A DNA stretch of 54,480 nucleotides from a phage (GCA_018865545.1 GCA_018865545.1_3633.2), one strand, 5' to 3'. Positions 3,286 through 53,461 are shown, numbered from the stretch's first letter. The notes: generated by a model from the sequence alone, not told the origin. Numbers and translations: made by a program.

Positions 3286-3500
3286 TCCGAAAACTCGGTT
3301 CTCGATCGAAAATTCATTTTCCAGATCGTATTTGCTCCTTACGGAGAAAATTTTTTAGGGCTACAAATTTCAGTTCTCGATCAGTTTTTCGATTTCAAAA
3401 TCGTATTTGTTTTTTCTTGCGAAAAATTTCGCACGCTCAGTTCTCGATCGAGTTTTCAAAATCGAAATCGTATTTGCTCTATAGCGCGAAAAAATTTTTA
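3286..3500. repeat. three tandem ~68-bp direct repeats (iteron-like), core GTTCTCGATCG...AAATCGTATTTG
   Basis: Direct inspection: units starting near 3286, 3361 and 3428 share GTTCTCGATC(G/A), TTTTC, AAATCGTATTTG and GCGAAAAAATTT blocks. Confidence 0.6.
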
Positions 3501-3881
3501 TGGGTATCATAATTCTATCACACACTTAAACGCAAAGCAACATAAAAATTTTTGTTGAATGATAATCATTCTCATTTGCAGAATGACAGGTAGGATCGGT
3601 GTCTTATCCTCCCCCGTTGACCATCGTCGCCGTAGTTTGAAGTTTATAGCCGTTCTCGGCTTATCTCTTTGTTAGATATAGATTAACATAATTGATAAAG
3701 AAAGCAAGCGTTAATTGTAATCTTTACGTTTCTTTACAAATTTATTTTTGACGAGTTACCGGCGATCGACCTTCCAACCAGCGCCCTGGTATGTTAGCCC
3801 CGCCTTTACGCCGTGGGGATGGCGTTTCCTCTTCTGTATGTGAAACATTATAAGCCCGACCCCCGGGCTTGTCAAACATTT

Positions 3882-4148
3882 TTATTGTTTATTTTCTTGC
3901 CAGGTTAGGACACCTAGCCAGAAATGGCAATCACCTTTCGCCCATTGTGGTATATTGCTTTCTTTCCCACCTTCCCGCGCCCAGGAATAACCGCCCGTGT
4001 AACTTTGCAATTGATAACTATCCTCGACCTTATAATCTGACAGGCTGAGAACTGTTTCTACCTTTAAGCCCGTTGCGCTCGCTACCTGGTGGATAGTTCC
4101 CCCTTGCCAGCCTAACGCGTGCATAAGGTGCAATGTGGTCGTGGTCAT
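3882..4148 (-). CDS. hypothetical protein (isolated minus-strand gene)
   Basis: 88-aa ORF; AGGA RBS 9 nt upstream; possible divergent promoter TTGCCT-16-TATAGA; hairpin GCCCGGGGGTCGGGC downstream. Confidence 0.4.
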   Translation of the reverse strand: MTTTTLHLMHALGWQGGTIHQVASATGLKVETVLSLSDYKVEDSYQLQSYTGGYSWAREGGKESNIPQWAKGDCHFWLGVLTWQENKQ

Positions 4149-8191: not shown

Positions 8192-8410
8192 ATGTTTGGT
8201 TTTATTGTTCTATCTTGTTCTCTTTCTGTCACTGCTGCAAAGGTAGAATGTAACTACACTGTAAAAGAGACTTTTAATGATGAAAAGTCTTGCAATGCAT
8301 ACGAAAATAATTATAAACTAGGAGACGGGGAGCAGTTCGGGATCTGTGATGAATTAAAAGACGGGATCAAGAAAGGTGATAAGCGCCCGATCCTAGTCCT
8401 GAAAAAATAA
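8192..8410 (+). CDS. small secreted protein (putative signal peptide)
   Basis: ORF track; GCGAGGTG RBS; N-terminus MFGFIVLSCSLSVTAA resembles a signal peptide. Confidence 0.5.
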   Translation: MFGFIVLSCSLSVTAAKVECNYTVKETFNDEKSCNAYENNYKLGDGEQFGICDELKDGIKKGDKRPILVLKK

Positions 8411-8450
8411 TTTTCTAATCATGTTGATCAATTTTTAAGAGGTGAATAAA

Positions 8451-8738
8451 ATGTTTGAAGTTTTCGCGGGTATGTGTTTTTATACAGCTTTGGCAGTTCG
8501 CCAGTGTGATGATTATATCGTTGAATCATACGACGATCAGTTAACTTGCGAAATAGTCGCTAATGACTACGGCAAAAAAGATCGCTGGGTTAATCCGGCT
8601 TGTATACCATCCCCAGAGGTAGAAGCCATGCCAGAAGGGGAAGAGGTGACGGATCCAGTTGTAGCGGTATCCTCCTTTTTCGTTGACAACCTGGACGCCC
8701 AAGAATTGATCAACATGTATGTAAAAAATCAAAAATAA
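8451..8738 (+). CDS. hypothetical protein
   Basis: ORF track 8442..8738; start moved to ATG8451 behind AAGAGGTG RBS. Confidence 0.5.
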   Translation: MFEVFAGMCFYTALAVRQCDDYIVESYDDQLTCEIVANDYGKKDRWVNPACIPSPEVEAMPEGEEVTDPVVAVSSFFVDNLDAQELINMYVKNQK

Positions 8739-8780
8739 CGCTTGACGTTGATTTGTGCCACCTTATAATAGGTGGCATAG
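8738..8780 (+). promoter_or_regulatory. promoter TTGACG-16-TATAAT with palindrome TGCCACC/GGTGGCA flanking the -10
   Basis: Direct inspection of 8742-8777. Confidence 0.45.
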
Positions 8781-8828
8781 GTAAGCGAAAGCGGATCTAA
8801 ATCTTAAACAAGTTAAGAGAGGTAAATC

Positions 8829-9149
8829 ATGGAACAAGCTAATAAATTTTTCTTCCTGGCTGGGATCGTGGATAATGTGAAATGTGATTTCAAGCGTGAA
8901 AATGATAAGACGTTACTCACTTTCTGCGATATGCTTGATCATGAGAATGCCGACACGTTACGAATTGAGATCCGCACGATAACCAATATCGACAACGCAA
9001 GCCGTTTAATTTATAAAACTCATTCTATAGCCTACAGCCTAGAAACATCGACAAGCTGCCTGCAACAAGGTGAGAGCTTGCCTATTCTAAATAGTGCCGA
9101 TGTATTTGGCGCGGTTGTTGCCATTGTGAACGATGTTTTTTCCCGCTGA
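8829..9149 (+). CDS. hypothetical protein
   Basis: ORF track; AGAGAGGT RBS. Confidence 0.5.
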   Translation: MEQANKFFFLAGIVDNVKCDFKRENDKTLLTFCDMLDHENADTLRIEIRTITNIDNASRLIYKTHSIAYSLETSTSCLQQGESLPILNSADVFGAVVAIVNDVFSR

Positions 9150-9264
9150 TTGGTGTTAATCTTATGTTAGAAAATATCGTTTTTTGGTGTGGTGTCGTTC
9201 TTGCTGTTATGGTTGGCCTTCTGGCGACGATGGAGAATATTGTGATCTCAAATAACCTGGCACG

Positions 9265-9320
9265 GTAAAAAATTTTTTAAAAATAGTATTGACAGCTAGG
9301 TAGTATAGATCTACTATGTA
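9265..9320 (+). promoter_or_regulatory. sigma70-like promoter TTGACA-17-TACTAT (repeat copy 2)
   Basis: Part of the 130-bp perfect direct repeat 9268-9397 = 4228-4357. Confidence 0.55.
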
Positions 9321-9372
9321 CACATCAAGGCGATACACCGCCACCAACCAACCTAAAAAGGGGTGAATTAAT

Positions 9373-9660
9373 ATGAAAACCATCGTTAACGCTGAGATAA
9401 AAGAGGGTAACAAAATAAATATTCTAACAGTTTATGGCGAGACTGTGGAGTCAGTATCGGAGGCTATTAATAAGATTACACAAAAAATTGCAATTGAAAT
9501 ATTAGCCAGTGATCCGGCTCGTTTGTTTAATGATGTGTACCATGATGACGTATCTTTGCCGTGCTTCACTTTCAAAACAGAAAGCACGTTTGACAAAGTA
9601 AAAAAGTGTATACCTGTTCACGTCTATCTGTGCCAGGAAGATCCAGAAGATTGGATCTAA
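9373..9660 (+). CDS. hypothetical protein
   Basis: ORF track; same RBS and first 8 codons as the gene at 4333, then diverges. Confidence 0.55.
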   Translation: MKTIVNAEIKEGNKINILTVYGETVESVSEAINKITQKIAIEILASDPARLFNDVYHDDVSLPCFTFKTESTFDKVKKCIPVHVYLCQEDPEDWI

Positions 9661-9695
9661 CGGTTGACAATACGCAATGATTGCTTATAATAACC
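9660..9695 (+). promoter_or_regulatory. promoter TTGACA-16-TATAAT
   Basis: Consensus hexamers at 9664-9669 and 9686-9691. Confidence 0.5.
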
Positions 9696-9738
9696 CGCAT
9701 CAGACGGTAAGTTTTCCGCACCTAACAAAAGGCTAATA

Positions 9739-10008
9739 ATGATGAACATCTCAAAAACTACTTTCAACTTCGCTAAAAAGCGTGGGATTGAGCTTGAGCT
9801 AATCGCAGCAGATGATCGCTTGGTCCTGGCTTTTTATGAAGCTAAAAACGAATGTGAGTGGATGTTCTCTTATAATGTTAACTATGATTGCCTAACATGG
9901 CGCGGCAATATCTATCTTCCAAACGAAGTAAAAGAGGAATTACCAGCCACGATCACGACTGAGAAAAAATTACGTGAAGTTATTGACTTCATCTCTAAAA
10001 GTATCTAA
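9739..10008 (+). CDS. hypothetical protein
   Basis: ORF track; AAAGG RBS; downstream of consensus promoter. Confidence 0.5.
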   Translation: MMNISKTTFNFAKKRGIELELIAADDRLVLAFYEAKNECEWMFSYNVNYDCLTWRGNIYLPNEVKEELPATITTEKKLREVIDFISKSI

Positions 10009-10054
10009 GATTACAGGGAAAGGGGCAAAAGCCCCCTACCGCAGAAGGTATAAA

Positions 10055-10279
10055 ATGGATAAATTAACAAAGATTGAACATGAAGTTATGGATCTTGCAA
10101 GGGCTAATAGGCCATTTGACAAGATTTTCTCTAAGGAGAATAAAGAGATCTTGAAAGGTCTAACGCAAGGTCAAAAAGACGGCTTGCGCCGCTTATATCG
10201 TGAGGCGTATGACTATTTTCGCTGGTGGGAAATAGAAGAGGCTAACGCGAAAATAGAAGGCCTAGAAAATTTAGTATAA
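10055..10279 (+). CDS. hypothetical protein
   Basis: ORF track 9974..10279; start moved to ATG10055 behind GAAGGT RBS; GC hairpin 10017-10040 upstream. Confidence 0.45.
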   Translation: MDKLTKIEHEVMDLARANRPFDKIFSKENKEILKGLTQGQKDGLRRLYREAYDYFRWWEIEEANAKIEGLENLV

Positions 10280-12821: not shown

Positions 12822-12850
12822 AAGGGGCGCATTAAGCGCCCTTTATTTTT
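12822..12850 (+). terminator. rho-independent terminator ending the plus-strand cluster
   Basis: Hairpin GGGGCGC-ATTA-AGCGCCC followed by TTTATTTTTG. Confidence 0.6.
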
Positions 12851-13235
12851 GCCCTAACAAGTATGATAAGTTTTATCTATCAAAACACCACACAGAAAAA
12901 AGTGAATAAAACGCGGTATCGAGCTAAACGAGGGCAGACAATACAACGGCAAGGCTGAACATTTAAGGCCGTTATAACGCGATTCAGGCCGCTTAAAATC
13001 GATCCCCACCACGAACAACCCCCACAAAATGACTAAAACGACACAACATGACCTAAATGATAACCATTATCAATAACATAAGCATTTTTATGCGTTTTTA
13101 GTGAATATCTATTTAAATGATAATGACTCTCAACAACAAACTAACACGACCGAAGCGATTTAATCGCCTACCACAAAATTAATCATTTGTAAAGAACAAT
13201 TTAAAAGCTGCGTAAGTGGCGCGACCGTAGGGAGC

Positions 13236-13460
13236 GACACAATAACGCAGTAGTAACCCCTCCCCTCACTCCTTACAGTCGCCCGGTATCGGGCTAGCGT
13301 TATTATGTCGCTACGCGCCAACGCGTTAACAATTTTGCAAAGAAGCCTGCTTTGCAGGTTAAGCGCATTGCGCTTAATCGCGTAGCGACTATGTGAAATT
13401 ATAACAGTTAAATTATTAATAAAATCTTGCAAAATTGTTAACCTACTGCGTTATTGTGTC
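13236..13460. repeat. nested and interleaved inverted repeats
   Basis: 18-bp perfect IR GACACAATAACGCAGTAG (13236-13253) / CTACTGCGTTATTGTGTC (13443-13460); 16-bp IR 13325-13340 / 13427-13442; 11-bp IR GTCGCTACGCG / CGCGTAGCGAC; palindrome TTAAGCGCATTGCGCTTAA. Confidence 0.7.
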
Positions 13461-13849
13461 CGGTACGGATTAGTTACGTATGTAACTAACAACTAACGTT
13501 GCTAAATTGTGTCCTGTATATAATTCGTTAAATTAACCAAATTAATCCCCGATTATTACGCAGTAAATCACCTGCTTTTAACCCTGTTAATGTGCCACGT
13601 AGTGATCTGCTATCTTGCCCAGGGATAACCGCATGGCATGCGGTTAAATGCTGTTAAGTGCCTGAAATGCCAGATCAATTTAGTCACTGCGTGATTATGA
13701 TTGCGACAATAATTTGCTTATGATTTGTTATGCTTTGTTATAATTTGCTATTTATTTGTTAAACACTCTTTTATCTTTCCTCTTTCATTTTTGTTATATT
13801 TGATTTGTTATCGTTTTCTTCCGTTTCATTTCGTTATTGAAAACAAGAA

Positions 13850-15250
13850 TTATTATCATTCATGTGCCTTAACAGGCTGGCAGGTCTGTTAGTGGTCTGG
13901 TTCTCTGTGTGGTCATGTGATGGCTGGCTTAGTAGCTTGGTTTTATTGTCTGGCCTGTTATTGTTAGCTTGCTTGTTGTTGTGTGGTGTATGTATCAGTT
14001 AGCTAGTGTATGATCTGGTGCGCATAACGTGTATTATGTTAAATCACTAAGCCCACAAATAAGGTGGCTTGTCAATAACAATAAGTGCTGTGTGCGGTAG
14101 TCTGGCCCATCAGTGCGCCCCTTTGTTGTGTGGTGCTCTCAGTGTGTGACCTGTCTGCTGTGTGCGCTGCGCCAAATCTCGAGCGGTTCTCGATCACAAT
14201 AGCTGTAAGATATTTTGTAAAGATTCGTAGTTTTTCTTGACACCCACAATCGTCCGTCTAACCCTTCAGAGATTTATCTGTGATTTTTACCCTTCAGAGA
14301 TAAATACAAACTATGAGCTACATCTGCCACAAGCATACCTGCCATGTCACATCACTAATCTTGCAAGGATATTTCTGTAAGTGAACCTGCACACAATGCA
14401 GCACGCGTCTTGTTGTGTGGGGAGGGTGGGGTAACAATCAGGAAGTGGTGTGGCTGTGATAACGTATTGGATAAAAACTCTGGCTGGCTTGTCGATGATA
14501 TTTGTGTGGGGAAATGCTGATGGGTAAGATATAAGACACTTGTCTCCGGCAGGGGTGGGGTGTGGAAAAGAAATGGGCCTGTCCGACCCATTGTGATATA
14601 GAAATGAAATGGCCATCTCACCATTGACCAGGTAAGCCAATATCAAGGCCAAATTCGTGGCACTCATCCCAGTCAAGACTTTGATTCCAGTTTGTAACTG
14701 TCCTCTCTGTGTGGTGGGTGTATGATGCTCTCTGTGACTGCTTTGGCATCTTTTTTGTCTGAGATTTCCCGAAAAGAGGTGTGTTGTCATTGAGTCTTCC
14801 GGCAGCCTTTTCACCCTTTTTGACTTGTCTCCCACAGGCATTCCACTGCTCCAGTGTCCTGTAACACATAAAATCATTCTCCTGTAATATCTGGTGTGAG
14901 GATAATGACAGATTGTATCAGATGCGTCAAGTCTGTTGACCAGAGTGTGTGGGGAGTGGTGTCGTTATAAAAAAAAATTTTAGGGAGCTTTCCATGACTT
15001 ATTCTGTGGCTTCAGCAAGGCCATAAACCCAGATGTGGCGGGGCTTTCAGCTATGTTGTGTGTTGATCGCAAACAAGGATAAAATAATCAATATAAATGC
15101 AGATAAATGTTGTTTTATTGTGTTTGTGTAACTGGGGTGTCGTGTCTTGATAGGTTATGACCTGTACATATTTTGTACAATTGTGTGGTGTGCAGAGTTT
15201 GGGTGGCAATTCCCCAGACGGGGCAGGGTAGGTTATGGTGGAGAGCAGGG
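13850..15250. repeat. GT-skewed non-coding region with recurring TGTGTGG(G) motifs and G-tracts
   Basis: Direct inspection: TGTGTGG-like motifs near 13975, 14125, 14412, 14446, 14503, 14556, 14707, 14945, 15181; GGGGAGGGTGGGG at 14419-14431. Confidence 0.5.
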
Positions 15251-18565: not shown

Positions 18566-18598
18566 AATAAAAGCCCCATGCGGGGCTTTTATGTTTAT
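18565..18598. terminator. bidirectional rho-independent terminator
   Basis: AAAATAAAAGCCCCATGCGGGGCTTTTATGTTT: 7-bp GC stem flanked by A-tract and T-tract, between convergent genes. Confidence 0.65.
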
Positions 18599-19335
18599 TC
18601 AAAATCATCAACACCGCTATCGGTAAGGTTTTCTCTGCTCGAAGGTTTTGTCGAAAGAACTTGCTCAAGCAGAGAGGAAAATTTCTGCAAATTACTTATA
18701 GAGGAAGTCTCTGTTGCCATGGCAAGCATATCCACTTCTTTTTCGGTAGGTTGCGTCCAGTCTAGAAACATCTCTTTCATGTACAACGTTGATGTCCCTA
18801 TTGGTGTGGCGAGGTCAACCCTATCAGCATAGACCCAGAAAAGAACTTCTTTCTCTATACATACACACAAAGCAGCACCCAACGAGTATCCTGTAACGAG
18901 GGATGGATATCTTGCAACGAGGATCTCGACATTCAGGTCATCCCAGTGAAATACAACACCCAAACACTTCATATCCACAATGTCTTCCACTGCGGGTTTT
19001 AGCTCCTCATGGGAAGAAAGGGAGTCATAGTTAATATTCTTTATGAATTTAAGAACGTCTTGGCGGTTGTAGGCACAATCGTTATCACCTTGCTTCCAGT
19101 AACCCCAAAATGAAGTCGATAAATTCAACCAAAAACTTGCAGTTGTCCCTAATGTCTCAGCCAGTTTTTCAGCCACATCTTCTGATACTTCTTCCATGTT
19201 ATATAGGATAGTTCTTAACTTATTTACAGGTATACCAGATCTGTCGGCAAGATCATCCACACACCAACCTAATGGATCCAGATATTCGTGGATAATAACC
19301 TCCCCTGGTGACACTGGTGCTCTTTCTTTCTGCAT
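18595..19335 (-). CDS. HigA-like HTH (antitoxin family) protein fused to a C-terminal domain of unknown function
   Basis: Start at ATG19335 behind AAGGAGAG RBS; N-terminus PVSPGEVIIHEYLDPLGWCVDDLADRSGIPVNKLRTIL..AEKLAETLGTTASFWLNL matches the HigA/VapI HTH pattern; about 150 aa follow with no recognised motif. Confidence 0.55.
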   Translation of the reverse strand: MQKERAPVSPGEVIIHEYLDPLGWCVDDLADRSGIPVNKLRTILYNMEEVSEDVAEKLAETLGTTASFWLNLSTSFWGYWKQGDNDCAYNRQDVLKFIKNINYDSLSSHEELKPAVEDIVDMKCLGVVFHWDDLNVEILVARYPSLVTGYSLGAALCVCIEKEVLFWVYADRVDLATPIGTSTLYMKEMFLDWTQPTEKEVDMLAMATETSSISNLQKFSSLLEQVLSTKPSSRENLTDSGVDDFE

Positions 19336-19388
19336 TCTCTCTCCTTTCTCTCTACCAGAAAACCCTGCAAAGCAGGGTTTTGTTACTA

Positions 19389-19592
19389 TCAGCATTTAGG
19401 CGAGCATTTATCGCACGGGCATGAAATTCCGTGGAAACACAAACCTGTTCCGTCTTTCTTGACCCCTGTTCCACCACATTGGGGACAACTATCGTGTAAG
19501 CATTTTGTTTTTGTTGTCTCCTCTTTATCTTTATTAAAGAAGTTTTTCATAATCATTTTCTGTTGTTCAATCGTAAACATTTGCGTCCCCAA
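19389..19592 (-). CDS. small Cys-rich zinc-finger protein (CxxCxGxG type)
   Basis: ORF track; CLHDSCPQCGGTGVKKDGTGLCFHGISCPCDKCSPKC. Confidence 0.45.
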   Translation of the reverse strand: MGTQMFTIEQQKMIMKNFFNKDKEETTKTKCLHDSCPQCGGTGVKKDGTGLCFHGISCPCDKCSPKC

Positions 19593-19873: not shown

Positions 19874-20156
19874 TCAAAAACCTCGTTTCTTCAAACTGCT
19901 CTGGTGTCAATAAACTTGTTCCTACACGACTGCCATTGCCACACATAATGGGCACGGCAATCATGTGACTATCCTTTTCTGCATTACCTAAATCAAGGTA
20001 CTGCCCATAACGTTTGATAAGTCGAAGGCTCATTTTTGAATTAGCTAAAGCCCTTGTATTATAGAGATAATCCTCAAGGTACAAATGTAGAGCGTTTGCC
20101 ACCTTTAGAGATTTTGATAAGAATAATTTATTACGCCGGACCAGTTTTTTCTTCAT
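19851..20156 (-). CDS. hypothetical protein (paralog)
   Basis: ORF track. Confidence 0.4.
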   Translation of the reverse strand: MKKKLVRRNKLFLSKSLKVANALHLYLEDYLYNTRALANSKMSLRLIKRYGQYLDLGNAEKDSHMIAVPIMCGNGSRVGTSLLTPEQFEETRFLSEKEDYS

Positions 20157-20349
20157 GCAACCCTCGCTTGTGCCTGTACATTGCTAAAGGCCATACAGAA
20201 CTCACTATAAAGCATTTCCATGCCCAACCCCATGGAGTCTTTGGTGCATAAGCTCGTTCAAGCCATTTACTCTTTTCCATCTCTGCCGTATGTACAAACC
20301 ATACGGCAATATACAGTGCAACTATAATGTAGATAAAGCCATTAATCAT
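20131..20349 (-). CDS. small membrane protein
   Basis: ORF track; hydrophobic N-terminus. Confidence 0.35.
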   Translation of the reverse strand: MINGFIYIIVALYIAVWFVHTAEMEKSKWLERAYAPKTPWGWAWKCFIVSSVWPLAMYRHKRGLHEEKTGPA

Positions 20350-21403
20350 TCATCTTATCCCAACACATTTGTTGTGCTGTCATCAAAACATCGGCAGCAA
20401 AGTTAAGATCTGTTGTCTTCGGTAAATGCGTGTTCTTGTACAGAGTGTTACGAATATAGTCATCCTTCTCTTCTGCCCAAGCCAAGAGCTTCTCCAAAGA
20501 CCATGCACCATTCCTGATTGCAAGAAGCTCCTGAGCATCAGGTCTTTTTACTAAGACTTTACCTTCTGCTAGGATCTCCTCAGCCATACGCATCAATCTT
20601 ACCAAATGGATGGCATGTTTGCAATCGTACCCGTACTTTTCTTCTAAGTCATGCCGGACCGGATTTCTGTTTTCAACCCATGTCCAGTAGTTCTTATGCT
20701 TTTCCTTTGCTTGTTTATGGTCATCTGCTAGATACTTAACGATTAAAATTGGTTTACGTTTCTTATCCTCGCCAGAGAACTGTTCGTATGGGACTTTACG
20801 AATAGAGCCGTCAGAGTTAAACAAGCCAGCATTGTCGTGTGTTCCGATCACGCCATAGATATTATCACCCATTGGTAAAAAGACACACAACTTGTTAAGG
20901 TCATCCAGCATTTTCTGGAAGTCTTTGTGTTTTGTAAGATTATCATCCATCCACGAGTGTGTCAAGCGCATGAACTCTTTTTGTGTTGGTTGCTCTTTAG
21001 GCTGCGGGTTATTAATCCATTTATTATGGCCTTTGATACGCTTCAGTTGCGCCATCGCGTACCCAGAAAAAGTAAAAGCAACTTTGCTGGATAGGAGTTT
21101 TGGCGCTTGCTCGCGTAGGTACTCGTAAACATCTGAAGTTTGCAGAATGTCACCTCTATCAACAAACATAAGCTCGATGATGTTTGGGTTCATATCAACG
21201 AACAACTTCATGTAGTTTGTTAGCTCATACAGTTTACCATCCTCTTCATCAATAAGAGTCATTTCTCTGTCAACGAAAAACGGGGTAAGAATGCTTTTAG
21301 GCTCTGCACAATAAATTCCGCGAATATCCACATCAGATGTTGGTAAGTTAGTTCCATAGGCAATACTACCACTGTAGCAGCGCATTAGTTCTAGTTTCTT
21401 CAT
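20342..21403 (-). CDS. Pol-beta superfamily nucleotidyltransferase, function unknown
   Basis: N-terminal motif GSIAYGTNLPTSDVDIRGIY fits the G[SG]..D.D NTase signature. Confidence 0.55.
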   Translation of the reverse strand: MKKLELMRCYSGSIAYGTNLPTSDVDIRGIYCAEPKSILTPFFVDREMTLIDEEDGKLYELTNYMKLFVDMNPNIIELMFVDRGDILQTSDVYEYLREQAPKLLSSKVAFTFSGYAMAQLKRIKGHNKWINNPQPKEQPTQKEFMRLTHSWMDDNLTKHKDFQKMLDDLNKLCVFLPMGDNIYGVIGTHDNAGLFNSDGSIRKVPYEQFSGEDKKRKPILIVKYLADDHKQAKEKHKNYWTWVENRNPVRHDLEEKYGYDCKHAIHLVRLMRMAEEILAEGKVLVKRPDAQELLAIRNGAWSLEKLLAWAEEKDDYIRNTLYKNTHLPKTTDLNFAADVLMTAQQMCWDKMND

Positions 21404-21780
21404 TGTTGTACCTTTTTGTCTTTTCTTGCATTATCCCAAAAATTAAGGATATTTTGGTATCGGATCTTGTCTTCCATATATTCGGCCTCATCACGAAGAT
21501 CGCGCACATGGTCTATTAAGGCACACACTTCATCATGGTATGTTGTATCACTAGTGATGTGCTTAATCATACAAGATCCTGCTTTCCACTTTGAAAGTGA
21601 GTATCTCAGATTATCATCTTTCTCTGTGGGGAACGCGTCAACTAATATTTTTGCCTTATTACCTTTTATCTTTTGTACCACCCCTCTGCGCAATTCATTA
21701 TTACCCCAATAGATAAACACAGTATCACCAACAAATAACCTGGTTCCACTTGCGTCTCTCATTTTATGCCTCCAACACAA
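21400..21780 (-). CDS. hypothetical protein
   Basis: ORF track. Confidence 0.5.
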   Translation of the reverse strand: MCWRHKMRDASGTRLFVGDTVFIYWGNNELRRGVVQKIKGNKAKILVDAFPTEKDDNLRYSLSKWKAGSCMIKHITSDTTYHDEVCALIDHVRDLRDEAEYMEDKIRYQNILNFWDNARKDKKVQQ

Positions 21781-22126
21781 AGAAATAATAAATTGTTACC
21801 GCTGTAAAGTAAAGTGTTTTGGAAATCAGCCGTAACCAACAATCCCTGTTTGTATACACTTTTCCTGCCAAGATATTACTACCTGTTACGATATGCCCCC
21901 ACACCCACACACCAAACAAGAATCCTCCTAGCAAACCCCCTGTTGGTGGTGTTAATGTGGTAATCATCGCAATACCTTCGAGGATGGTGAATATGAAGAA
22001 ATATGAGAATGCCTCTCTTACACATTTTATTCCTCTGCCAGTAACGCAGGTATTAACTAAACCTATAAGACAAAAGATCGTCCAAAGCACATACAATGTA
22101 TAAACCATAACCCACCTAACCTCCAA
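21764..22126 (-). CDS. membrane protein
   Basis: ORF track; multiple hydrophobic segments. Confidence 0.45.
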   Translation of the reverse strand: MEVRWVMVYTLYVLWTIFCLIGLVNTCVTGRGIKCVREAFSYFFIFTILEGIAMITTLTPPTGGLLGGFLFGVWVWGHIVTGSNILAGKVYTNRDCWLRLISKTLYFTAVTIYYFFVLEA

Positions 22127-22173
22127 AATGTTAACCTCTCCAACCCTATCAGAGAGGTTTCAGAAATGATCTG

Positions 22174-22671
22174 TTACTCACCTTTCAGCTTAAAACTTTT
22201 CAATGTTTTGATAAAGTTTTTCTCTGCTGGTGAGTAAGTGTGAACGAAACCTGTTTCTTCACAGGTGTAGGTATCATTAATCTCCATCGCATGTTGAGGC
22301 ATAAATGCACCTTCAGGAACAGGTTTATATTCTGGGTTGTAGATATATTCCGGTAACACAACAGCTACAGCAGTCAGTGCTCCATTCAGGGCTTCCCATT
22401 CTTCACGGAAAGCACCAACAGGGAGGTTTCCCACAGATTTAACCTGCGTAAGAAAATCTTGCAGGACGGATTGATAACCACCATTTAAAACAATAATGGT
22501 CTTATCTTTTTCTCTCCAGCATTTCAGCAAATAGTGCGCATCGAACTCTTCCGGTGTGTTTGCTGGGCGGTTATATGCCTCCATAAGTTCCACAATGGCA
22601 TGCGCTGATTGGATACCTGCATGGATACCGGAGATATATTGATTAACAATACAATACATTCTTGTTTTCAT
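22174..22671 (-). CDS. PTH2-like (peptidyl-tRNA hydrolase-like) protein, tentative
   Basis: GIQSAHA resembles the Q-x-S/A-H-A motif of PTH2 enzymes; weak. Confidence 0.35.
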   Translation of the reverse strand: MKTRMYCIVNQYISGIHAGIQSAHAIVELMEAYNRPANTPEEFDAHYLLKCWREKDKTIIVLNGGYQSVLQDFLTQVKSVGNLPVGAFREEWEALNGALTAVAVVLPEYIYNPEYKPVPEGAFMPQHAMEINDTYTCEETGFVHTYSPAEKNFIKTLKSFKLKGE

Positions 22672-22886
22672 TTTTGTTTTTTCCTCAGAATTATTCTATC
22701 TTCACTAAAAATTTCCTGTAACCCAGCAGCTATCAGTGCAAATATTGCTACCCACCATACAACTAACAGGAGTACCCCAACAAGCAAATCTCTACCTGTG
22801 ATCTGTTGCTCAATCCTGTAGGTAAAAATAAAGAAAGCTACGGATACTAAAGCACCAACAAAGAAGTAGATAAACACTTCAGTCAT
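22668..22886 (-). CDS. small membrane protein
   Basis: ORF track; two hydrophobic helices. Confidence 0.4.
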   Translation of the reverse strand: MTEVFIYFFVGALVSVAFFIFTYRIEQQITGRDLLVGVLLLVVWWVAIFALIAAGLQEIFSEDRIILRKKQK

Positions 22887-23214
22887 TATCTCTTTTCTCC
22901 AAATCCCGTTTCTCCAAGTATCCTTTTACCATAAGTGCTACAGCGTAAATTCCCACAAGACAAATACAAAATGTGAAAATAATAGGTAAAGTCATGACCG
23001 CAAACATCATAAACAGTGGTCCTACAACAGTAATGAATGCTGTTCCAAGCAACAACAAAAATACTACATATTTATCTGCCGTCTCATCCACCTTCTTAAG
23101 ATACACACCTAAACACACAGAAGACAACAGGAATGACAGAATGGACAGCAATAGATACCAATTATCAATAAAGATGATAATTGGACCAGCAACATTTTCT
23201 AGCCACCACATCAT
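22879..23214 (-). CDS. membrane protein
   Basis: ORF track; three hydrophobic segments. Confidence 0.45.
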   Translation of the reverse strand: MMWWLENVAGPIIIFIDNWYLLLSILSFLLSSVCLGVYLKKVDETADKYVVFLLLLGTAFITVVGPLFMMFAVMTLPIIFTFCICLVGIYAVALMVKGYLEKRDLEKRDND

Positions 23215-23228
23215 ATATACTTACCTCT

Positions 23229-24485
23229 TTAGAATAACATATCTCTGCTGATTGCTTTACGAATAGCATCAATACGGGCTACTCGCACAGCTTCACCAAT
23301 CTCTTTACCCTTCTTACCTTTTTCCAGAAGGGGTTTTGTTATAGCTTTAGAATCAACTTTTGTCATAGCATCGTAGGCTTCCAACAAAATATGACCCTGA
23401 GGATAAGGTTTATGTCTAAAATCACCACCTCTTCCTTTAGCATCACAATAACACGCATCTGCAAGTGTGTAAACCTTTATTTTCTGATCAGCTTGTCCAG
23501 CAGCTTCAAATATTTTCATGATGCTTTTTGGTTTCAAACCGTTGTTACCATCTCTGGGGGAGATGGCGTGCACTTTTGTGTGATTTTCCGCAACATATTT
23601 TGCCGTGTCACGATAGATATTATAAATCTTCAACCTTTCACACAAGGATTGGATAACATCTACACCAGCTTTCTCATGACCATGAAGATTACCATTGTCC
23701 TTGTAAGTTATAGCTTTGCCAAAATCATGGCACAGCACAGCAAACTTGGTCAGTGGATCAGCCCCTAATTCATCAGCAACCCGTAACGCTAGAATTGTAT
23801 GGGTGTAAGCATCCCCTTCTGGGTGATGTTCTTTAGGTTGTTGCACACGACGTAGGGCTTCCAGTTCAGGAAGTTCGCCAATACGTCCCATATTGACAGC
23901 AAAAGATCTGAAATAACCACTCTTTAAGGCTTTCAACATTTCCTTCCATTTACGCTCGGCGCTTATTTCTGCCAAAGAGTGTCGGTTGTCATAAGCCAGT
24001 TTAAAAGTTTCTGGATGGATATGCCACTCTTCCCCAAGCTGGGCTTTAAATCTAAACAGGCGTAGAATACGTAATGGATCTTCAATAAATGCCTGCGATG
24101 TATGACGTAATGTTTTAAGTCCTAAATCAACTTGACCACCAAAAGGATCAATAATCTCACCACTGTCAACATCCATCGCCATGGAGTTGATGGTTAGATC
24201 TCTACGTGCCAAATCCTCTTCCAGTGTTACATCTGGACTAAAGCATACCTCAAATCCTTTATGGCCTTCGCCTGTTTTTCTTTCTGTGCGTGCAAGAGCG
24301 TACTCTTCTCTTGTTTCTGGGTGAAGATAAACTGGAAAAGATGCGCCAACTTGTGTGAACCCTCTTTTCAACATCTCTTCATGCGTAGCGCCAACAACAA
24401 CATAATCACGGTCTGATAATTCACGACCCAGCAATTTATCTCTTACTGCACCGCCTACTAAGTATACCTTCATTTCTTCGCCCAC
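23229..24485 (-). CDS. cca: tRNA nucleotidyltransferase (CCA-adding enzyme) with HD domain
   Basis: N-terminus MKVYLVGGAVRDKLLGRELSDRDYVVVGAT..YALARTERK closely resembles bacterial Cca; HD-like region ALLHDIGK-type (LCHDFGK). Confidence 0.85.
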   Translation of the reverse strand: MGEEMKVYLVGGAVRDKLLGRELSDRDYVVVGATHEEMLKRGFTQVGASFPVYLHPETREEYALARTERKTGEGHKGFEVCFSPDVTLEEDLARRDLTINSMAMDVDSGEIIDPFGGQVDLGLKTLRHTSQAFIEDPLRILRLFRFKAQLGEEWHIHPETFKLAYDNRHSLAEISAERKWKEMLKALKSGYFRSFAVNMGRIGELPELEALRRVQQPKEHHPEGDAYTHTILALRVADELGADPLTKFAVLCHDFGKAITYKDNGNLHGHEKAGVDVIQSLCERLKIYNIYRDTAKYVAENHTKVHAISPRDGNNGLKPKSIMKIFEAAGQADQKIKVYTLADACYCDAKGRGGDFRHKPYPQGHILLEAYDAMTKVDSKAITKPLLEKGKKGKEIGEAVRVARIDAIRKAISRDMLF

Positions 24486-24796
24486 GTATTCATATAATTA
24501 ACAATATCTTTTACGGTTCTCTTTCCGTCCAGTGGATAAACCATGTCATCGCTCATCCCACCGTGTTTTAGCATTGCTACCAGTCTAGTATATACCTCTT
24601 TTGGTCTTTTGCAAGTTCTTTTCTTCCATTTATGACCGTCTGGGGAGTACTCCTTATCTTCAAGAGAGATATGAAGGATGTCCCCTATAAACTCTTTAGC
24701 CTGTGTGCTGTAAAGTGGACGGTGGAATATGTAGAATTTCATTGCTTGCTCCTTTGTTGTAATAACAATATCAGTGCAAGCCACCTGTGTCAACAC
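24470..24796 (-). CDS. hypothetical protein
   Basis: ORF track. Confidence 0.45.
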   Translation of the reverse strand: MLTQVACTDIVITTKEQAMKFYIFHRPLYSTQAKEFIGDILHISLEDKEYSPDGHKWKKRTCKRPKEVYTRLVAMLKHGGMSDDMVYPLDGKRTVKDIVNYMNTWAKK

Positions 24797-24831
24797 ATAA
24801 AGAAAAACCCGCTAAAAAGCGGGTTAATCTC

Positions 24832-30940: not shown

Positions 30941-31300
30941 ATAATCTCTTTCAATTAACCCAGGATATGCTTCTTTAAGTTTTGTGGCAAATTTATAACA
31001 CAGAGATTCTGCCGATGTACCGCTGCTTTCGCAGTATTTTTACGGACTAGACTATATCACGATCTTGTGACCACTCACAAGACCCTCCACATTTCGCCAT
31101 TCAAGGCTACTCTACTCGCTTCTTCACATCAGGTGAGGCTGATGCTATGCTTTCGATAGTCGTTAGAGACAATTTCTTGCCTACGGGGTTAGCTCTGCCC
31201 CAACAGGGTTTAGCCTTTCTTAACAGCTTATTGTTTATTCAGCTATGCCCGTTTAGTGGAGTTATTCGACAACCATCACTGGTTGAAGGCCCAATTGTGT
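30941..31300 (-). ncRNA. group I intron (ORF-less) in nrdD, boundaries approximate
   Basis: Separates exon 2 from exon 3; on the coding strand contains AACGACTATCGAAAG (P7 5'-like) and AAGATCGTGATATAGTCTAGTCC (P7 3'/P9.0-like). Confidence 0.55.
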
Positions 31301-32391
31301 CTAGGCGTGCCATATAAGCTAAATGCTAAACCACTTCGCTCTTTAAAATCAGCACAAATATCCTTCATGTATTTCAAGATATTCATTGCCATCTCTTTAC
31401 GAACTGGTTCGCCATACAAAATTTCAACTGCTTCATAAAGACCCACATAGCCAATACTGATTGATGCGTAGCCATTAAAGAAGAGTTTACTAATCTTTTC
31501 ATCAGGTCCAAGTCGTGCAATAGCCCCTTCCATAAACATTGTAGGGTTCTGGGAGGCTTTTACATCCATCAATCTACCGACTCTAACCATATGCGCTTTA
31601 TATGCCATTTCCATGTGCTTTTCAAGCAATTCGGTAAACAGAGTTTTCTTAGATTTTGCTTCTGCTGCAATCATAGGCAAGTTTAGAGAGACAACACCAA
31701 GATTGAATCTACCGTCATATTTCTCACCATGTTCTGTTGCATAATAAGATAAGAAACTTCTACAGCCCATGCTTGTAACACGCCCGTCTGAAGAACCTGT
31801 TACCTTTTTATTCAACGGGACAGATATGAAATCTGGATAAATCCTTTCAACACAACACTCCATAGCTAATTGCTTTAAGTCGTAGTTTGGATCGCCAGGC
31901 TTCATGTTTACCCCATCTTCCAAGAAGAAGATAACTTTTGGAAAAACAGGTGTGACTTTATCTTTGCCAAGTCCGTTCTTGTGAACAAGAAGATAATTCT
32001 TTGTAATCATTCTCCCAAAATAGGAAGTATCAAGCCCAAGGCTCAAGGTAATAAATGGGCATTGACCGTTAGCACTCATCAAGGTATTTACCTGATAAAG
32101 CAATGTCTGCATAGCATCGTAAACATCTTTTTCCGTCATCTGCATAGCTACACCTTCTGGGTCTGGCAGCCATTGCTCCTGACAAAATTTTAGATTTTTA
32201 TCGTAACTTGCCTTGGCATATTGTTTTAATCCTTCGTCAATATGAGTGTATGACTGACCACCATACTGTGCCGAAGAAACTGCTTGGGATATCTGGCTAA
32301 GAATCGTACAGGCGACACCTATTGATTTTGGTTTTTCTATTTTTGCGTTGCCAATTTTAAAACCGTTCTCCAACATACCCCTGTAATCCAC
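31276..32391 (-). CDS. nrdD: anaerobic ribonucleoside-triphosphate reductase, exon 2
   Basis: Central NrdD-like body ending near FSLYGTP; the last 8 codons and stop (RHNWAFNQ*) are probably intron read-through. Confidence 0.8.
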   Translation of the reverse strand: MDYRGMLENGFKIGNAKIEKPKSIGVACTILSQISQAVSSAQYGGQSYTHIDEGLKQYAKASYDKNLKFCQEQWLPDPEGVAMQMTEKDVYDAMQTLLYQVNTLMSANGQCPFITLSLGLDTSYFGRMITKNYLLVHKNGLGKDKVTPVFPKVIFFLEDGVNMKPGDPNYDLKQLAMECCVERIYPDFISVPLNKKVTGSSDGRVTSMGCRSFLSYYATEHGEKYDGRFNLGVVSLNLPMIAAEAKSKKTLFTELLEKHMEMAYKAHMVRVGRLMDVKASQNPTMFMEGAIARLGPDEKISKLFFNGYASISIGYVGLYEAVEILYGEPVRKEMAMNILKYMKDICADFKERSGLAFSLYGTPRHNWAFNQ

Positions 32392-32757
32392 AAGACTACA
32401 GTTGAAGAGCGGACTTATTAGGTAATCTAAATCCTTGATTTTCCTACATTTTTGCAGGCAATGACTATATCATAATCTCGAAAGAGATTCTCTGCTTTTC
32501 AACTGGTAGCGTCTCCAGCTTACTCCCGAAGGATAGTCGATACACATAACGAAGTCTCACTCAGAATTATTATCTTCACGGAATGATACTTCGTCTTAGC
32601 ACGGTATTACCTTGCCCCTTAGCCGAAGGGTTTAGGCTCCCTTACTCATAATGCAGTCACCTGCTTCTGAACCGTTAGCACAGTTTTTACTGCACACCGC
32701 TTTGCAATCAGCGTTAACAGAGTTATTCAATACTGATCACTCAGTAAGGCCACGATG
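32392..32757 (-). ncRNA. group I intron (ORF-less) in nrdD, boundaries approximate
   Basis: Separates ATP-cone exon from exon 2; coding strand contains GTATCGACTATCC and GATTATGATATAGTC, the same GATATAGTC block as the second intron. Confidence 0.55.
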
Positions 32758-33261
32758 TTATTCATGGATATGACCATACCCATTTGTATGCCATTCAGCT
32801 AATTCTTTTGGTAGAATTTGAGTTAGTGAAACGTGCTTGCTAAGGATACCAGCGAGAAGATCACGATGGCTACTAACCACCCCACTTGGTTTATTAGCGT
32901 TTTCTTTAGTAAATTCATCGGCAGTTTGTTCTAAGAATCCCGTAATATCTGCAAACAGCTTCCCTTTACATTCCCTAACGTTATCACGCGTTTTACGATA
33001 TTCAATATAAACCCGTGCTGCATTTTTGAGGTCAAGATCCATTAGTGAATCTTCCACAATGCGGTGAATATCACAAACAGCCACTTTCTCTTGTGGTGGT
33101 TCTGATTTTTCCAGAGTTCCCCAGACTTGCTCGCCAACTGCACATGCCAGAGGATATGATTTCTCACCATAACCAGCAGCAATCAGAGCAGCTTCTGCCG
33201 CTCTAATAACTTTCACACCATCATAATCTTCTTCACGCCCATCACGTTTAACAACTTTCAT
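32758..33261 (-). CDS. nrdD: anaerobic ribonucleoside-triphosphate reductase, exon 1 (ATP-cone)
   Basis: MKVVKRDGREEDYDGVKVIRA ATP-cone start; ends GYGHIHE just before the intron. Confidence 0.75.
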   Translation of the reverse strand: MKVVKRDGREEDYDGVKVIRAAEAALIAAGYGEKSYPLACAVGEQVWGTLEKSEPPQEKVAVCDIHRIVEDSLMDLDLKNAARVYIEYRKTRDNVRECKGKLFADITGFLEQTADEFTKENANKPSGVVSSHRDLLAGILSKHVSLTQILPKELAEWHTNGYGHIHE

Positions 33262-33264
33262 TGT

Positions 33265-33567
33265 TTATTCCCCCAGTTCAGTATTAATAAACGCAATAAA
33301 TTCATCTGCCGTACCAACATACACAGTATCGACACCGCACTCATAGAAAATCCGTGGGACTGTTTTTGGGATAACAGGGGAACATTTTAAGACCAATTCC
33401 TCTTTGGTGAAGTCTTCTCCTAATTTCTTATAGATAAAGTTAAGTCCTTTTTGTTTTGCAAACTCTTTTGCTCTTACACAATGAGGGCAATTATCTTTTC
33501 CATAAATTAAAAACGTGCATTCTTTAAAGTTCATCTTAAAAATCCCAGATTTCTTCTTCTGCATCAT
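33265..33567 (-). CDS. glutaredoxin/thioredoxin-like protein (CPHC)
   Basis: YGKDNCPHCVRAKEF active-site motif; located between nrdB and nrdD. Confidence 0.7.
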   Translation of the reverse strand: MMQKKKSGIFKMNFKECTFLIYGKDNCPHCVRAKEFAKQKGLNFIYKKLGEDFTKEELVLKCSPVIPKTVPRIFYECGVDTVYVGTADEFIAFINTELGE

Positions 33568-34624
33568 TCACTGTGGTGTTAACACGATAATCTGTGTTAG
33601 ACATTTCTTGGTTAGCCGTCTGCTGTAGCGCAGGATTCATCCATACTTGCATAAACGGTAAAGGGTCTTTGGAAGGAGGGTTGAAGTCCCTATCAAATCC
33701 AAAGTGGTCATAAATAGGAGCACAATTATAATCAACCCACTCTTTCAGCAATGGTTCGTTAAGGCCAATGATTGCTCTACCATCACTGAAAATATAGTGA
33801 CTCCAACTATACTCTTTTAATCTAACTTCGTCAAGAATTTCTTTCAATTCATGTTTGATGGCATTAAAGCTGTTCAACCATACAGGGTCTTCTAACAGAA
33901 TTTCAATAATTGCCAAGTCGTTCTTTGTGTGGAGAATCTCATCAAGCATTATTTTTTGCACAAGTTGTGCCACTTGAACAAAGATCCCTTGTTCAGCCAA
34001 GGCAAATGTGCACGCAAAACTGGATATGAACTCTATAGCTTCTAGGCCAAGCAGGGCAAACATAGCTCTCAGAATGCCTCTACGGGCCTCTTCTTTATCT
34101 ATAGAAGCAGGATCCAGTCTGTATTTAGCACCAAGAACTTCCAGTTCGCGCATATATTTGACAATGACACCAGATCTGTTTAAAACTTCTTGGTTGTTTT
34201 GTACTTCCTCAATAATTTCTCGTGCATTTGGCAAACACTGTCTGACAATTTCTGAGTATGTCAAAGCATGAAGCACTTCGATTTCTGCCTGTTTCATCAT
34301 CAAAGCGTATAATTCACTGTTTGTGATGAATGGGGCAAATAAACAGATAATTGATTGCGCTGCAACACTATCAGCTTCCCATTGCCACATCAAAGTTTGC
34401 ACCATAACATCATAGGTTGATTTACTGCATGTGGCAAAATCTGAAATTGATTGTACTAAATCAACTTCGTCTTCTGACCAGTCTTGCTCTTTTTGTTTTT
34501 TATATAAATCGAAAAGTTTTGGGTATTTTTTATTAATGGAGTCATACATCCCCATCTGCTGACCAAGAAACAGAGGGTAATCCCCAGTTTTATGTGCTGT
34601 GTTTTCTGTATTGAATAATGCCAT
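33536..34624 (-). CDS. nrdB: ribonucleotide reductase class Ia beta subunit
   Basis: 362 aa; ferritin-like region with conserved E/H pairs (EIVRQCLPNA, EFISSFACTFALAEQG); adjacent to nrdA. Confidence 0.85.
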   Translation of the reverse strand: MALFNTENTAHKTGDYPLFLGQQMGMYDSINKKYPKLFDLYKKQKEQDWSEDEVDLVQSISDFATCSKSTYDVMVQTLMWQWEADSVAAQSIICLFAPFITNSELYALMMKQAEIEVLHALTYSEIVRQCLPNAREIIEEVQNNQEVLNRSGVIVKYMRELEVLGAKYRLDPASIDKEEARRGILRAMFALLGLEAIEFISSFACTFALAEQGIFVQVAQLVQKIMLDEILHTKNDLAIIEILLEDPVWLNSFNAIKHELKEILDEVRLKEYSWSHYIFSDGRAIIGLNEPLLKEWVDYNCAPIYDHFGFDRDFNPPSKDPLPFMQVWMNPALQQTANQEMSNTDYRVNTTVNDAEEEIWDF

Positions 34625-49487: not shown

Positions 49488-50777
49488 TTAATATATAGGA
49501 TCCCACGTCAAAGAATCTACCTCACGAACACATTTGCCAACAGGAAATTGCGGAACACCGTCATCGGTCCTTGCTTGGTATGTAAAAGTTATATACTTGC
49601 CGATAAGTTTTTTCATATTCTCTTGTGAGCGTTCTTCGTGTGTGCCTCTCATCTTACAGTTAAATTGTGTACCATCCTTCTCAGCACACAACAGGACACC
49701 TTCTCCATTCTTATCCTCAAAGGAATCAAGAACTCTGGCCTCACCATCCTGAAACAATTTCCACTTTTGAAGATCAGACGATCTTTGTCCAAACTCATAC
49801 TTTCCGTGAAAGTTCCTTATTACAACACCCTCATAACCTGCTTCCATAAACTCCTTGATGAGCATTTTAACACGATCCTCACCAGACACTATTGCTCCGT
49901 GCACCACTTTAATCAGGTTATAAGGCCATGTATATTCAGAGACTTTCTGTAAATTATTAAACCTACACTTGTTTGTGTCAGAAGACATCCATGGTGTGTC
50001 ATCTTCCGAAGGGATATCGAAAATATGATATTCTAAGTCTAAACTTGAATAACCACAATACTTATTAATATTTTTCTCTGGTTTCTTTGTGATAGGATGT
50101 TCTAACCCTTCGGAGTCTTTCCAAAATTCATCACCATTGTTAATTGCTTTTTCAAATCGCTTTATGTCTGATTGATAGTCTTTTTCTATCTCACACTCTA
50201 TCTCTTCTGGTGTTCTCCATTTCTTAGCCAAAGAGACTATTTTCTGGAGACTTAACCCATGAATATACAACTCACCATCAAACATTTTCAACCCTGTCTT
50301 TTTGGCTAGCTTAGACATCTGATCAAGCAATTGGCCTTGTACAGGATATGTTTTATTGCCACGACTATTAAACACAGGTACACCATCATCACCAACAAGA
50401 ACAAGTGCTCTGACACCATCGAGTTTTGGTTGAACATGCACAGGGTACACTAAAGAGCTTTTCCTTTTAATAGCATCATGTGCAAGCATTGGTGAGAAAT
50501 CTTGTGTTTTTGTAAGATCATCCTTTGATACACGATACCCAAGGCGTACTTGTTTTTCCCACTTAGATTTTGCCTCCAAAACAGCTTGTTCTGTATCAGT
50601 TGTCTCATTTTTCTTACCGATGTTTTTGGCAAAGCATTTTGTGCGTTTATACTGCATTTTACCGTTTTCTTTACCAAACTCAACAACAGTTTCTGATCCA
50701 TCTACCCACACATTCCACACTTGATATGTACCATCCCTGTTTATGGCGTACAGTGTTGGGAGGTTATTTTCAAGCAT
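49488..50777 (-). CDS. ATP-dependent DNA ligase
   Basis: Motif I KLDGVR, motif III FDGELYIHG, motif IV EGVVIRN, motif V DLQKWKLF; start set to ATG50777 behind GCGAGGT RBS. Confidence 0.7.
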   Translation of the reverse strand: MLENNLPTLYAINRDGTYQVWNVWVDGSETVVEFGKENGKMQYKRTKCFAKNIGKKNETTDTEQAVLEAKSKWEKQVRLGYRVSKDDLTKTQDFSPMLAHDAIKRKSSLVYPVHVQPKLDGVRALVLVGDDGVPVFNSRGNKTYPVQGQLLDQMSKLAKKTGLKMFDGELYIHGLSLQKIVSLAKKWRTPEEIECEIEKDYQSDIKRFEKAINNGDEFWKDSEGLEHPITKKPEKNINKYCGYSSLDLEYHIFDIPSEDDTPWMSSDTNKCRFNNLQKVSEYTWPYNLIKVVHGAIVSGEDRVKMLIKEFMEAGYEGVVIRNFHGKYEFGQRSSDLQKWKLFQDGEARVLDSFEDKNGEGVLLCAEKDGTQFNCKMRGTHEERSQENMKKLIGKYITFTYQARTDDGVPQFPVGKCVREVDSLTWDPIY

Positions 50778-51971: not shown

Positions 51972-51981
51972 CAGTTTTCCT

Positions 51982-53440: not shown

Positions 53441-53461
53441 TCATAAAATCTCAATGATTAT

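Follow-up and report, generated by a model that had tools for sequence, protein, structure and literature searches.

Which need does a phage meet by keeping a CCA-adding enzyme, a hydrolase, and a Pol-beta nucleotidyltransferase close together on its genome? tRNA is among the preferred targets of the toxins and anti-phage systems of bacteria, and the well-studied countermeasure, the PNK and RNA ligase of phage T4, repairs only cuts in the anticodon loop. The question is raised by a stretch of 54,480 nucleotides from a phage (GCA_018865545.1; hereafter the window), in which the segment from 20342 to 24485 encodes all three proteins on the minus strand. In our analysis of the sequences, each of the catalytic proteins was assigned to a family acting on tRNA or RNA 3′ ends, and the segment rather probably encodes a co-transcribed enzyme set by which the phage, while it infects, keeps tRNA functional at its acceptor (3′) end. 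The 5-kb region around it shares 91.7 to 93.5% DNA identity with the Escherichia phages Av-05 and vB_EcoM_TH18 (TH18) and with three partial records, and the phage of the window and these relatives are all E. coli myoviruses of the Vequintavirinae. A listing of open reading frames (ORFs) together with profile searches placed every gene of the tRNA-maintenance set at the coordinates given below, all on the minus strand.

The gene at 23229 to 24485 (minus strand) encodes a class II CCA-adding and repair enzyme (418 residues) with a C-terminal HD phosphohydrolase domain, which had been called with confidence in the original prediction and is borne out by Pfam, NCBIfam, and PHROG searches. The protein matches the Pfam families PolyA_pol (77.2 bits), PolyA_pol_RNAbd (28.5 bits), and HD (34.6 bits, residues 227 to 348), as well as phrog_2244 at 1e-143. 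On the NCBIfam model NF008137, “multifunctional CCA addition/repair protein,” its residues 5 to 412 align with positions 1 to 404 of the 409 in the model and score 417.8 bits, slightly lower than the equivalog cut-off of 451 bits, while the scores on other NCBIfam models are far lower (81.3 bits for PcnB and 43.9 bits for the A-adding enzyme). Motifs A, B, and D of the head domain are represented by GGAVRD (residues 11 to 16), D25-R-D27, RRD (94 to 96), and EDPLR (135 to 139), which align with the same motifs of the Bacillus stearothermophilus CCA enzyme (1miv), and the metal-ligand motifs of the HD domain are present as HHPEG at residue 220 and HD at residue 253. Judging from these features, the protein is a full-length enzyme of the E. 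coli Cca type and neither a poly(A) polymerase nor an A-adding enzyme. Both have the same architecture end to end, with a head (GGxVRD, DxD, RRD, EDxxR), a neck and body, and a C-terminal HD domain (HHPEG, HD); the enzyme of the window differs in being phage-encoded and in scoring below the equivalog cut-off. The HD domain of E. coli Cca reportedly has phosphatase and 2′,3′-cyclic phosphodiesterase activity, as Yakunin et al. are said to have described in 2004. The ORF opens with GTG at 24485, whereas an ATG at 24473, which overlaps the stop codon of the upstream gene as ATGA, is probably the real start.

What such an enzyme does in the infected cell depends on the tRNAs that it meets. ARAGORN detected no tRNA gene in the whole window; as the tRNAs lie just outside it, the question whether they encode CCA was answered on the closest complete relatives. 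TH18 carries a cluster of 16 tRNA genes located 4 to 10 kb before the point at which the window starts, and Av-05 carries 14; the CCA is genomically encoded in all of them (16/16 and 14/14, respectively). The same test applied to the tRNA arrays of other phages gave 0/15 and 5/14 (loci L080 and L036 of the collection described below), and it is therefore able to discriminate. Maturation of CCA-less phage tRNAs by the enzyme was consequently rejected for this lineage. Since the CCA is already encoded, the enzyme is deemed to serve the repair of eroded or clipped ends instead. The tRNA genes of E. coli also encode CCA, so that Cca and the phage enzyme are alike in this respect, too.

The nucleotidyltransferase, a protein of 353 residues encoded at 20342 to 21403 (minus strand), could be assigned to the RlaP family (Pfam PF10127), in keeping with the Pol-beta type proposed for it earlier. 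It scores 48.7 bits on PF10127 (cut-off, 23), its homologues carry precomputed PF10127 assignments, and both the Pol-beta signature G12-S13...D24-x-D26 and the acidic pair E54-D55 are invariant in 35 homologues. The predicted layout comprises an N-terminal nucleotidyltransferase (NTase) domain, a beta-rich insert (residues ~145 to 224), and a helical C-terminal domain. As far as its sequence tells, the protein is an RlaP with intact catalytic motifs, in which we infer the third acidic ligand to be either E54 or D55. The name of the family comes from its association with RNA ligases, and such company is found here as well, the window encoding an Rnl1-like ligase, a kinase, and a phosphoesterase 27 kb away. 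According to a preprint of December 2025, two Pseudomonas RlaPs add one to two nucleoside monophosphates to the 3′-OH of RNA but not of DNA, favor the 5′ fragment of a cleaved-tRNA mimic, and are able to restore aminoacylation of a tRNA missing one nucleotide before ligation; T4 NrdC.11 is a further family member (PMC12776372). The family to which the proposed nucleotidyltransferase belongs has thus been shown in vitro to extend the 3′-OH of damaged tRNA. The protein of the window resembles the RlaPs of P. fluorescens and P. aeruginosa and T4 NrdC.11 in the Pfam match, in the residues G-S...D-x-D and E54-D55, and in the predicted combination, as described for PfRlaP, of an NTase domain with a helical C-terminal domain. 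It differs in the extra beta-rich insert and in that its gene neighbors those for the CCA enzyme and the PTH2-like protein, and not RtcB/RtcA.

The third enzyme, for which a likeness to PTH2 had been put forward tentatively, is encoded at 22174 to 22671 (minus strand) and consists of 165 residues, with a core of residues ~1 to 111 and a C-terminal extension of residues 112 to 165. A homologue search with this protein retrieved 186 relatives, nearly all of them phage or metagenome proteins without names, and at E ≤ 0.001 the family includes 2487 representatives among 1.84 billion 50%-identity clusters. A sequence search of the PDB with the 165-residue protein gave nothing meaningful (best E value, 1.6, to an acetyltransferase), and a PDB profile search with the family reached Pth2 only at an E value of ~1, so that the fold search decided the assignment. 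In Foldseek, an AlphaFold model made from an alignment of 61 of the 186 relatives (mean pLDDT, 93.9) had archaeal Pth2 or human PTRH2/Bit1 as all of its top ten matches, each with a probability of 1.0. Furthermore, 19 of the 61 relatives match Pfam PTH2 at E ≤ 0.01 (best, 6.6e-7), and none of them matches another family. As modeled, therefore, the “hydrolase” has the alpha/beta fold of Pth2, and the PTH2-like and nucleotidyltransferase proteins both turned out, in domain and fold searches, to fall into tRNA-related families.

Gln21 and His24 of the PTH2-like protein align with the Q-x-x-H-A motif of Pth2, and Q21, H24, and T100 are invariant in the family and common to canonical Pth2. In the profile alignment, Glu90 is placed opposite Asp86 of the “DAG” motif of S. 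solfataricus Pth2 (1xty), whereas the position of Lys18, four residues before the conserved Gln, is putatively occupied by His17, in a register taken from the helix. Lys18 and Asp86 are the catalytic residues of the S. solfataricus enzyme, as Fromant et al. reportedly found in 2005. In comparison with Pth2 of known structure (1wn2, 1xty, 2zv3, and 3erj) and human PTRH2/Bit1 (1q7s), the protein of the window has a C-terminal extension of ~55 residues, and its clade has Glu for Asp and His or Gln for Lys. We know of no biochemically tested member of this clade. With the Pth2 fold and part of the Pth2 signature, the protein would likely work at the 3′ end of tRNA as an esterase of the Pth2 type.

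Whether the three genes belong together was judged from their distribution among phages. Scanning IMG/VR with the profile of the PTH2-like family yielded 79 loci with 8-kb flanks, 12 from close relatives and 67 from distant phages, and the six-frame ORFs of these loci were searched with the window proteins in one iteration. The 12 close relatives keep the region, with ClpP, the methylase, phrog_7526, the CCA enzyme, the membrane proteins, the PTH2-like protein, DUF7205, and RlaP. The 8-kb flanks of the 67 distant loci, instead, gave zero matches to the methylase, phrog_7526, DUF7205, and the three membrane proteins. Within the same distance they contain the CCA enzyme (14 loci), RlaP (12), an Rnl1-type ligase (11), a PNK-type kinase (15), Thg1 (2), and tRNA genes (21), at least one of these being found in 53 of the 67. 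In the loci L037, L043, and L050 the genes follow the order CCA, PTH2-like, RlaP, overlapping or abutting and with no gene between them, and in L042 the CCA and PTH2-like genes abut. The PTH2-like genes of L036 and L047 lie inside tRNA arrays (14 and 9 tRNAs, respectively), each beginning a few nucleotides from a tRNA gene, and RlaP is found 1 to 2 kb away. Vibrio phage D148 has the CCA enzyme, the PTH2-like “hydrolase,” RlaP, Thg1, Rnl1, and PNK all inside 10 kb, while phiTE keeps the CCA enzyme and RlaP and the PTH2-like gene was not detected there.

The linkage of CCA enzyme, PTH2-like protein, and RlaP thus persists where all other neighbors have changed, which argues that the clustering is more than chance, and direct adjacency in otherwise unrelated contexts is a stronger argument than the neighborhood counts. 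As the three genes are found next to one another again in phages that are only distantly related, we regard them as a real tRNA-repair toolkit, of a largely already recognized kind. That the phage invests in the upkeep of its tRNA, as had been suggested, agrees with the linkage of the PTH2-like gene to CCA enzymes, RlaP, RNA ligase, PNK, Thg1, and tRNA arrays. Some further observations were made in these loci. The RlaP gene is split in L050, where a GIY-YIG-like ORF lies between two RlaP halves (8396 to 10241), and in phiTE (L011, 5920 to 7044) RlaP is annotated in three consecutive pieces. Other components of ribosome rescue are also encoded near the PTH2-like gene in some phages: L065 has a tmRNA (3464 to 3887) inside an array of 21 tRNAs, and L009 has an SmpB homologue (14184 to 14618) located 6 kb from the PTH2-like gene.

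In the window, four small ORFs on the minus strand interrupt the three enzymes. They had been described as small membrane proteins, which holds for the three that are hydrophobic: a predicted multi-span protein of 111 residues at 22879 to 23214 (phrog_29214; found in 8 of the 12 close relatives), a predicted two-span protein of 72 residues at 22668 to 22886 (phrog_14512, “membrane protein”; 7 of 12), and a predicted membrane protein at 21764 to 22126 (phrog_16835; 4 of 12), which has 120 residues when counted from a TTG and 114 in Av-05. The fourth, at 21400 to 21780, is instead a soluble DUF7205 protein of 126 residues (Pfam PF23835, 123.2 bits; phrog_2112; 10 of 12), and the stop of its gene overlaps the start of RlaP by 4 nucleotides (nt), i.e., the two are translationally coupled. 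The membrane proteins were considered as members of the module and rejected, as all of them vanish in the distant cassettes (0 of 67 loci). DUF7205 is equally missing there, and all four ORFs are lineage-specific passengers outside the conserved core.

Nearly all genes beyond ~15 kb of the window are carried by the minus strand. The junctions between successive genes of the unit measure −16, +14, −8, −4, +47, −17, −4, and −8 nt, and the genes between 20342 and 24485, which overlap or nearly abut, appear to make one transcription unit. Its first gene would be that at 24470 to 24796 (minus strand), which matches phrog_7526 and is annotated in a 90-residue version in Av-05; its probable start is an ATG at 24742, preceded by the ribosome-binding site AAGGAG. 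Upstream of this gene, a terminator-like hairpin on the minus strand (24825 to 24806, AACCCGC/GCGGGTT followed by a T-run) is directly followed by a sigma-70-like promoter (24793 to 24765, TTGACA, a 17-nt spacer, and TG-TATTGT); both are consensus matches only, and this element (24765 to 24825) is the putative start of the unit. Past RlaP, a gene at 20131 to 20349 (minus strand), which overlaps the RlaP stop by 8 nt and is kept downstream of RlaP in close relatives, encodes a protein of 72 residues whose N-terminal part contains a single hydrophobic segment. A bidirectional terminator-like hairpin with an 11-bp stem at 18567 to 18592 is the next strong terminator on the minus strand and probably marks the end of the unit. 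The gene closing the putative unit (18567 to 19395) encodes a 266-residue protein with a weak N-terminal HTH, annotated in Av-05 as “plasmid antitoxin with HTH domain.”

The window also contains the RNA repair module that had been noticed earlier, a set for the repair of RNA breaks at 51564 to 54040 (minus strand), 27 kb from the trio. By Pfam and PHROG matches, it comprises a P-loop (PNK-like) kinase of 135 residues (51564 to 51971), a phrog_1479 protein (51982 to 52314), a T4 Rnl1-like RNA ligase (52311 to 53243; Pfam RNA_lig_T4_1, PF09511, 65.6 bits), and a metallophosphoesterase (53462 to 54040). Further matches in the set are to phrog_2071/505, 562, and 547 and, weakly, to the 2′,3′-cyclic phosphodiesterase SpdA. 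The Rnl1, kinase, and phosphoesterase set presumably handles anticodon-loop breaks, and RlaP may serve both routes. The phage shares with T4 PNK-Rnl1 and the jumbo-phage toolkit (PMC7824862) an RNA ligase, a kinase/phosphatase, RlaP, a CCA-adding enzyme, and PTH2. It differs in that its genome of ~134 kb is not that of a jumbo phage, in that end-healing is split over two separate proteins, kinase and phosphoesterase, unlike in the bifunctional T4-type PNK, and in that the three acceptor-end genes are tightly packed into a cassette of their own at a distance from the ligase set.

If the trio keeps the acceptor end usable, its members could act as follows. The PTH2-fold hydrolase would cleave the ester bond that ties a peptidyl or N-blocked aminoacyl group to A76, and this deblocking would release tRNAs caught in stalled or aborted translation or through modification by a toxin. 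In the CCA enzyme, the HD domain would strip the 2′,3′-cyclic or 3′-phosphate left by ribonucleases. RlaP would then add one to two untemplated nucleotides to the shortened 3′-OH, the target being either the discriminator position or a break in the anticodon loop that has been trimmed too far and is yet to be ligated by the phage Rnl1, and the CCA-adding head domain would rebuild C74-C75-A76. The likely selective pressure would be the damage that tRNA ends suffer from defense or toxin systems of the host or from RNA decay set off by infection.

Several observations weigh against this reading. The break for which RlaP has a demonstrated preference is that of the anticodon loop and not the acceptor end, and RlaP may for this reason work with the Rnl1 located 27 kb away rather than with its neighbors; besides, the PF10127 match spans only residues 7 to 123, i.e., the N-terminal third of the protein. 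The PTH2-like protein has the fold of PTH2 (PF01981), but it scores 17.5 bits on the Pfam model, under the gathering threshold of 23, and departs from the canonical Lys/Asp pair. The departure extends to the whole clade: all 252 relatives have Glu at the Asp86 position, and at the Lys18 position 165 of them have His and 84 have Gln. With such a noncanonical active site, the substrate may differ from that of Pth2. A PADLOC scan of the ten proteins of the unit detected no relative of a defense system, and no other connection to such a system came to light. As for co-transcription, 26 promoter-like sites were observed in comparison with 26.2 in shuffled sequences, and the promoter and terminator calls are consensus matches. 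The neighborhood counts, too, are raw counts to be read with caution, since by a rough estimate a random 16-kb window of a TH18-like genome would touch one of three tRNA-related islands in ~45% of cases, and many of the 67 distant loci are phylogenetically related and not independent.

These points leave room for other explanations. The set might simply boost translation capacity with no role in conflict, providing extra CCA repair and peptidyl-tRNA recycling for heavy late translation and for the 14 to 16 tRNAs of the phage itself while host expression is shut off. The nearly full-length match of the CCA enzyme to the model of the E. coli housekeeping Cca would fit such a role, as would the large tRNA sets of the relatives, the frequent location of the PTH2-like gene inside tRNA arrays, and the lack of any defense-related signature in PADLOC. 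We nevertheless hold this explanation to be fairly unlikely: E. coli already possesses Cca and Pth, and the recurrent company of RlaP, Rnl1, PNK, and Thg1, families which have been described as counter-RNase systems (PMC7824862, PMC12776372), points to the repair of broken or truncated RNA and not to routine turnover. It is also conceivable, with still lower probability, that the three enzymes form no single pathway, RlaP refilling over-trimmed anticodon loops for the distant Rnl1 set, the CCA enzyme acting alone, and the PTH2-fold protein acting on a non-tRNA or non-peptidyl substrate (a different ester, for instance, or a 3′ end bearing a modification), so that their adjacency would reflect a shared early “RNA” neighborhood. 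The anticodon-side fragment that RlaP prefers in the tested cases, the noncanonical active site of the PTH2-like protein, and the many distant loci with one partner only nearby speak in favor of such a division. It is made improbable by L037, L043, and L050, where the three genes are directly adjacent and overlapping despite different surroundings, and by Q21, H24, and T100, which the PTH2-like family has in common with canonical Pth2. Finally, unrelated accessory genes could have come together by chance in a poorly conserved early region rich in membrane proteins, since phage early regions are mosaics and four small, unrelated ORFs lie between the enzyme genes; this we consider highly improbable, as the linkage persists at 30 to 45% protein identity while all other neighbors are lost.

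The preferred reading, a set that maintains the tRNA acceptor end, can be carried further. It is plausible that the set counters host tRNA-targeting toxins, as the original prediction had also surmised. A more specific version, which we put forward as possible though doubtful, would have the trio as a dedicated acceptor-end repair pathway, distinct from the anticodon-loop repair by PNK and ligase, which undoes the effects of 3′-end-directed host defense toxins, the His/Gln...Glu site of the PTH2-like protein being adapted to an adduct made by a toxin instead of ordinary peptidyl-tRNA. Candidate toxins include HepT-type nucleases, which clip the last four nucleotides of tRNA, CapRel/FaRel2-type toxins, which pyrophosphorylate the CCA end, TacT/AtaT-type toxins, which acetylate aminoacyl-tRNA, and MenT-type toxins, which add nucleotides.

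Other parts of the window deserve mention as observations in their own right. At the switch from plus- to minus-strand genes, near the turning point of the GC skew, an ORF-poor stretch of ~1.5 kb (~12830 to 14347) holds nested perfect inverted repeats of 18 nt (13236 to 13253 and 13443 to 13460) and 16 nt (13325 to 13340 and 13427 to 13442). Neither Rfam nor tRNA searches gave a match in this stretch, which is possibly a regulatory or origin region, and the Rfam scan of the whole window returned zero matches. At 31276 to 34624 (minus strand), the large subunit of an anaerobic ribonucleotide reductase is found as separate ORFs, and TH18 (L002, 31496 to 34143) annotates three pieces; introns, inteins, or frameshifts are possible causes. 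At 49488 to 51555 (minus strand), a SIR2-family gene (PF02146, 92.9 bits) and an ATP-dependent DNA ligase gene overlap at the 5′ end of the latter, and in TH18 and Av-05 a nicotinamide phosphoribosyltransferase and a PRPP synthetase are encoded just before the start point of the window, which together suggests a theme of NAD metabolism. The Av-05 record (NC_025830.1, L001) is rearranged with respect to the window and TH18 from window position 27000 onward: the DprA-like gene is followed by tail-fiber genes in Av-05, but by PhoH, endolysin, and ribonucleotide reductases in the window and TH18. A difference of assembly or permutation may lie behind this, and because of the rearrangement TH18 was taken as the genome-scale reference.

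In 2021, Iyer et al. listed RlaP, the CCA-adding enzyme, PTH2, Thg1, and RNA ligases as the repertoire with which jumbo phages and related ones repair RNA, and read it as a response to host RNases or tRNA nucleases (PMC7824862). In RefSeq, the Av-05 orthologues are labeled “tRNA nucleotidyltransferase,” “hydrolase,” and “nucleotidyltransferase.” What is added here is that the “hydrolase” is modeled with the fold of Pth2, differs from it in the active site, and forms part of a large clade, that the nucleotidyltransferase is by its sequence an RlaP, that the three genes form a cassette surviving in distant phages, and that the tRNAs of this lineage encode CCA. For the window itself, the value lies mainly in a better annotation of the reference records, as PTH2-fold hydrolase and RlaP. 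If the proposed role is true, the acceptor-end cassette would supply concrete candidates for phage resistance to 3′-end-directed toxins, and it would give a functional context to the PTH2-like clade, with its ~2500 sequence clusters, and to the newly characterized RlaP family.

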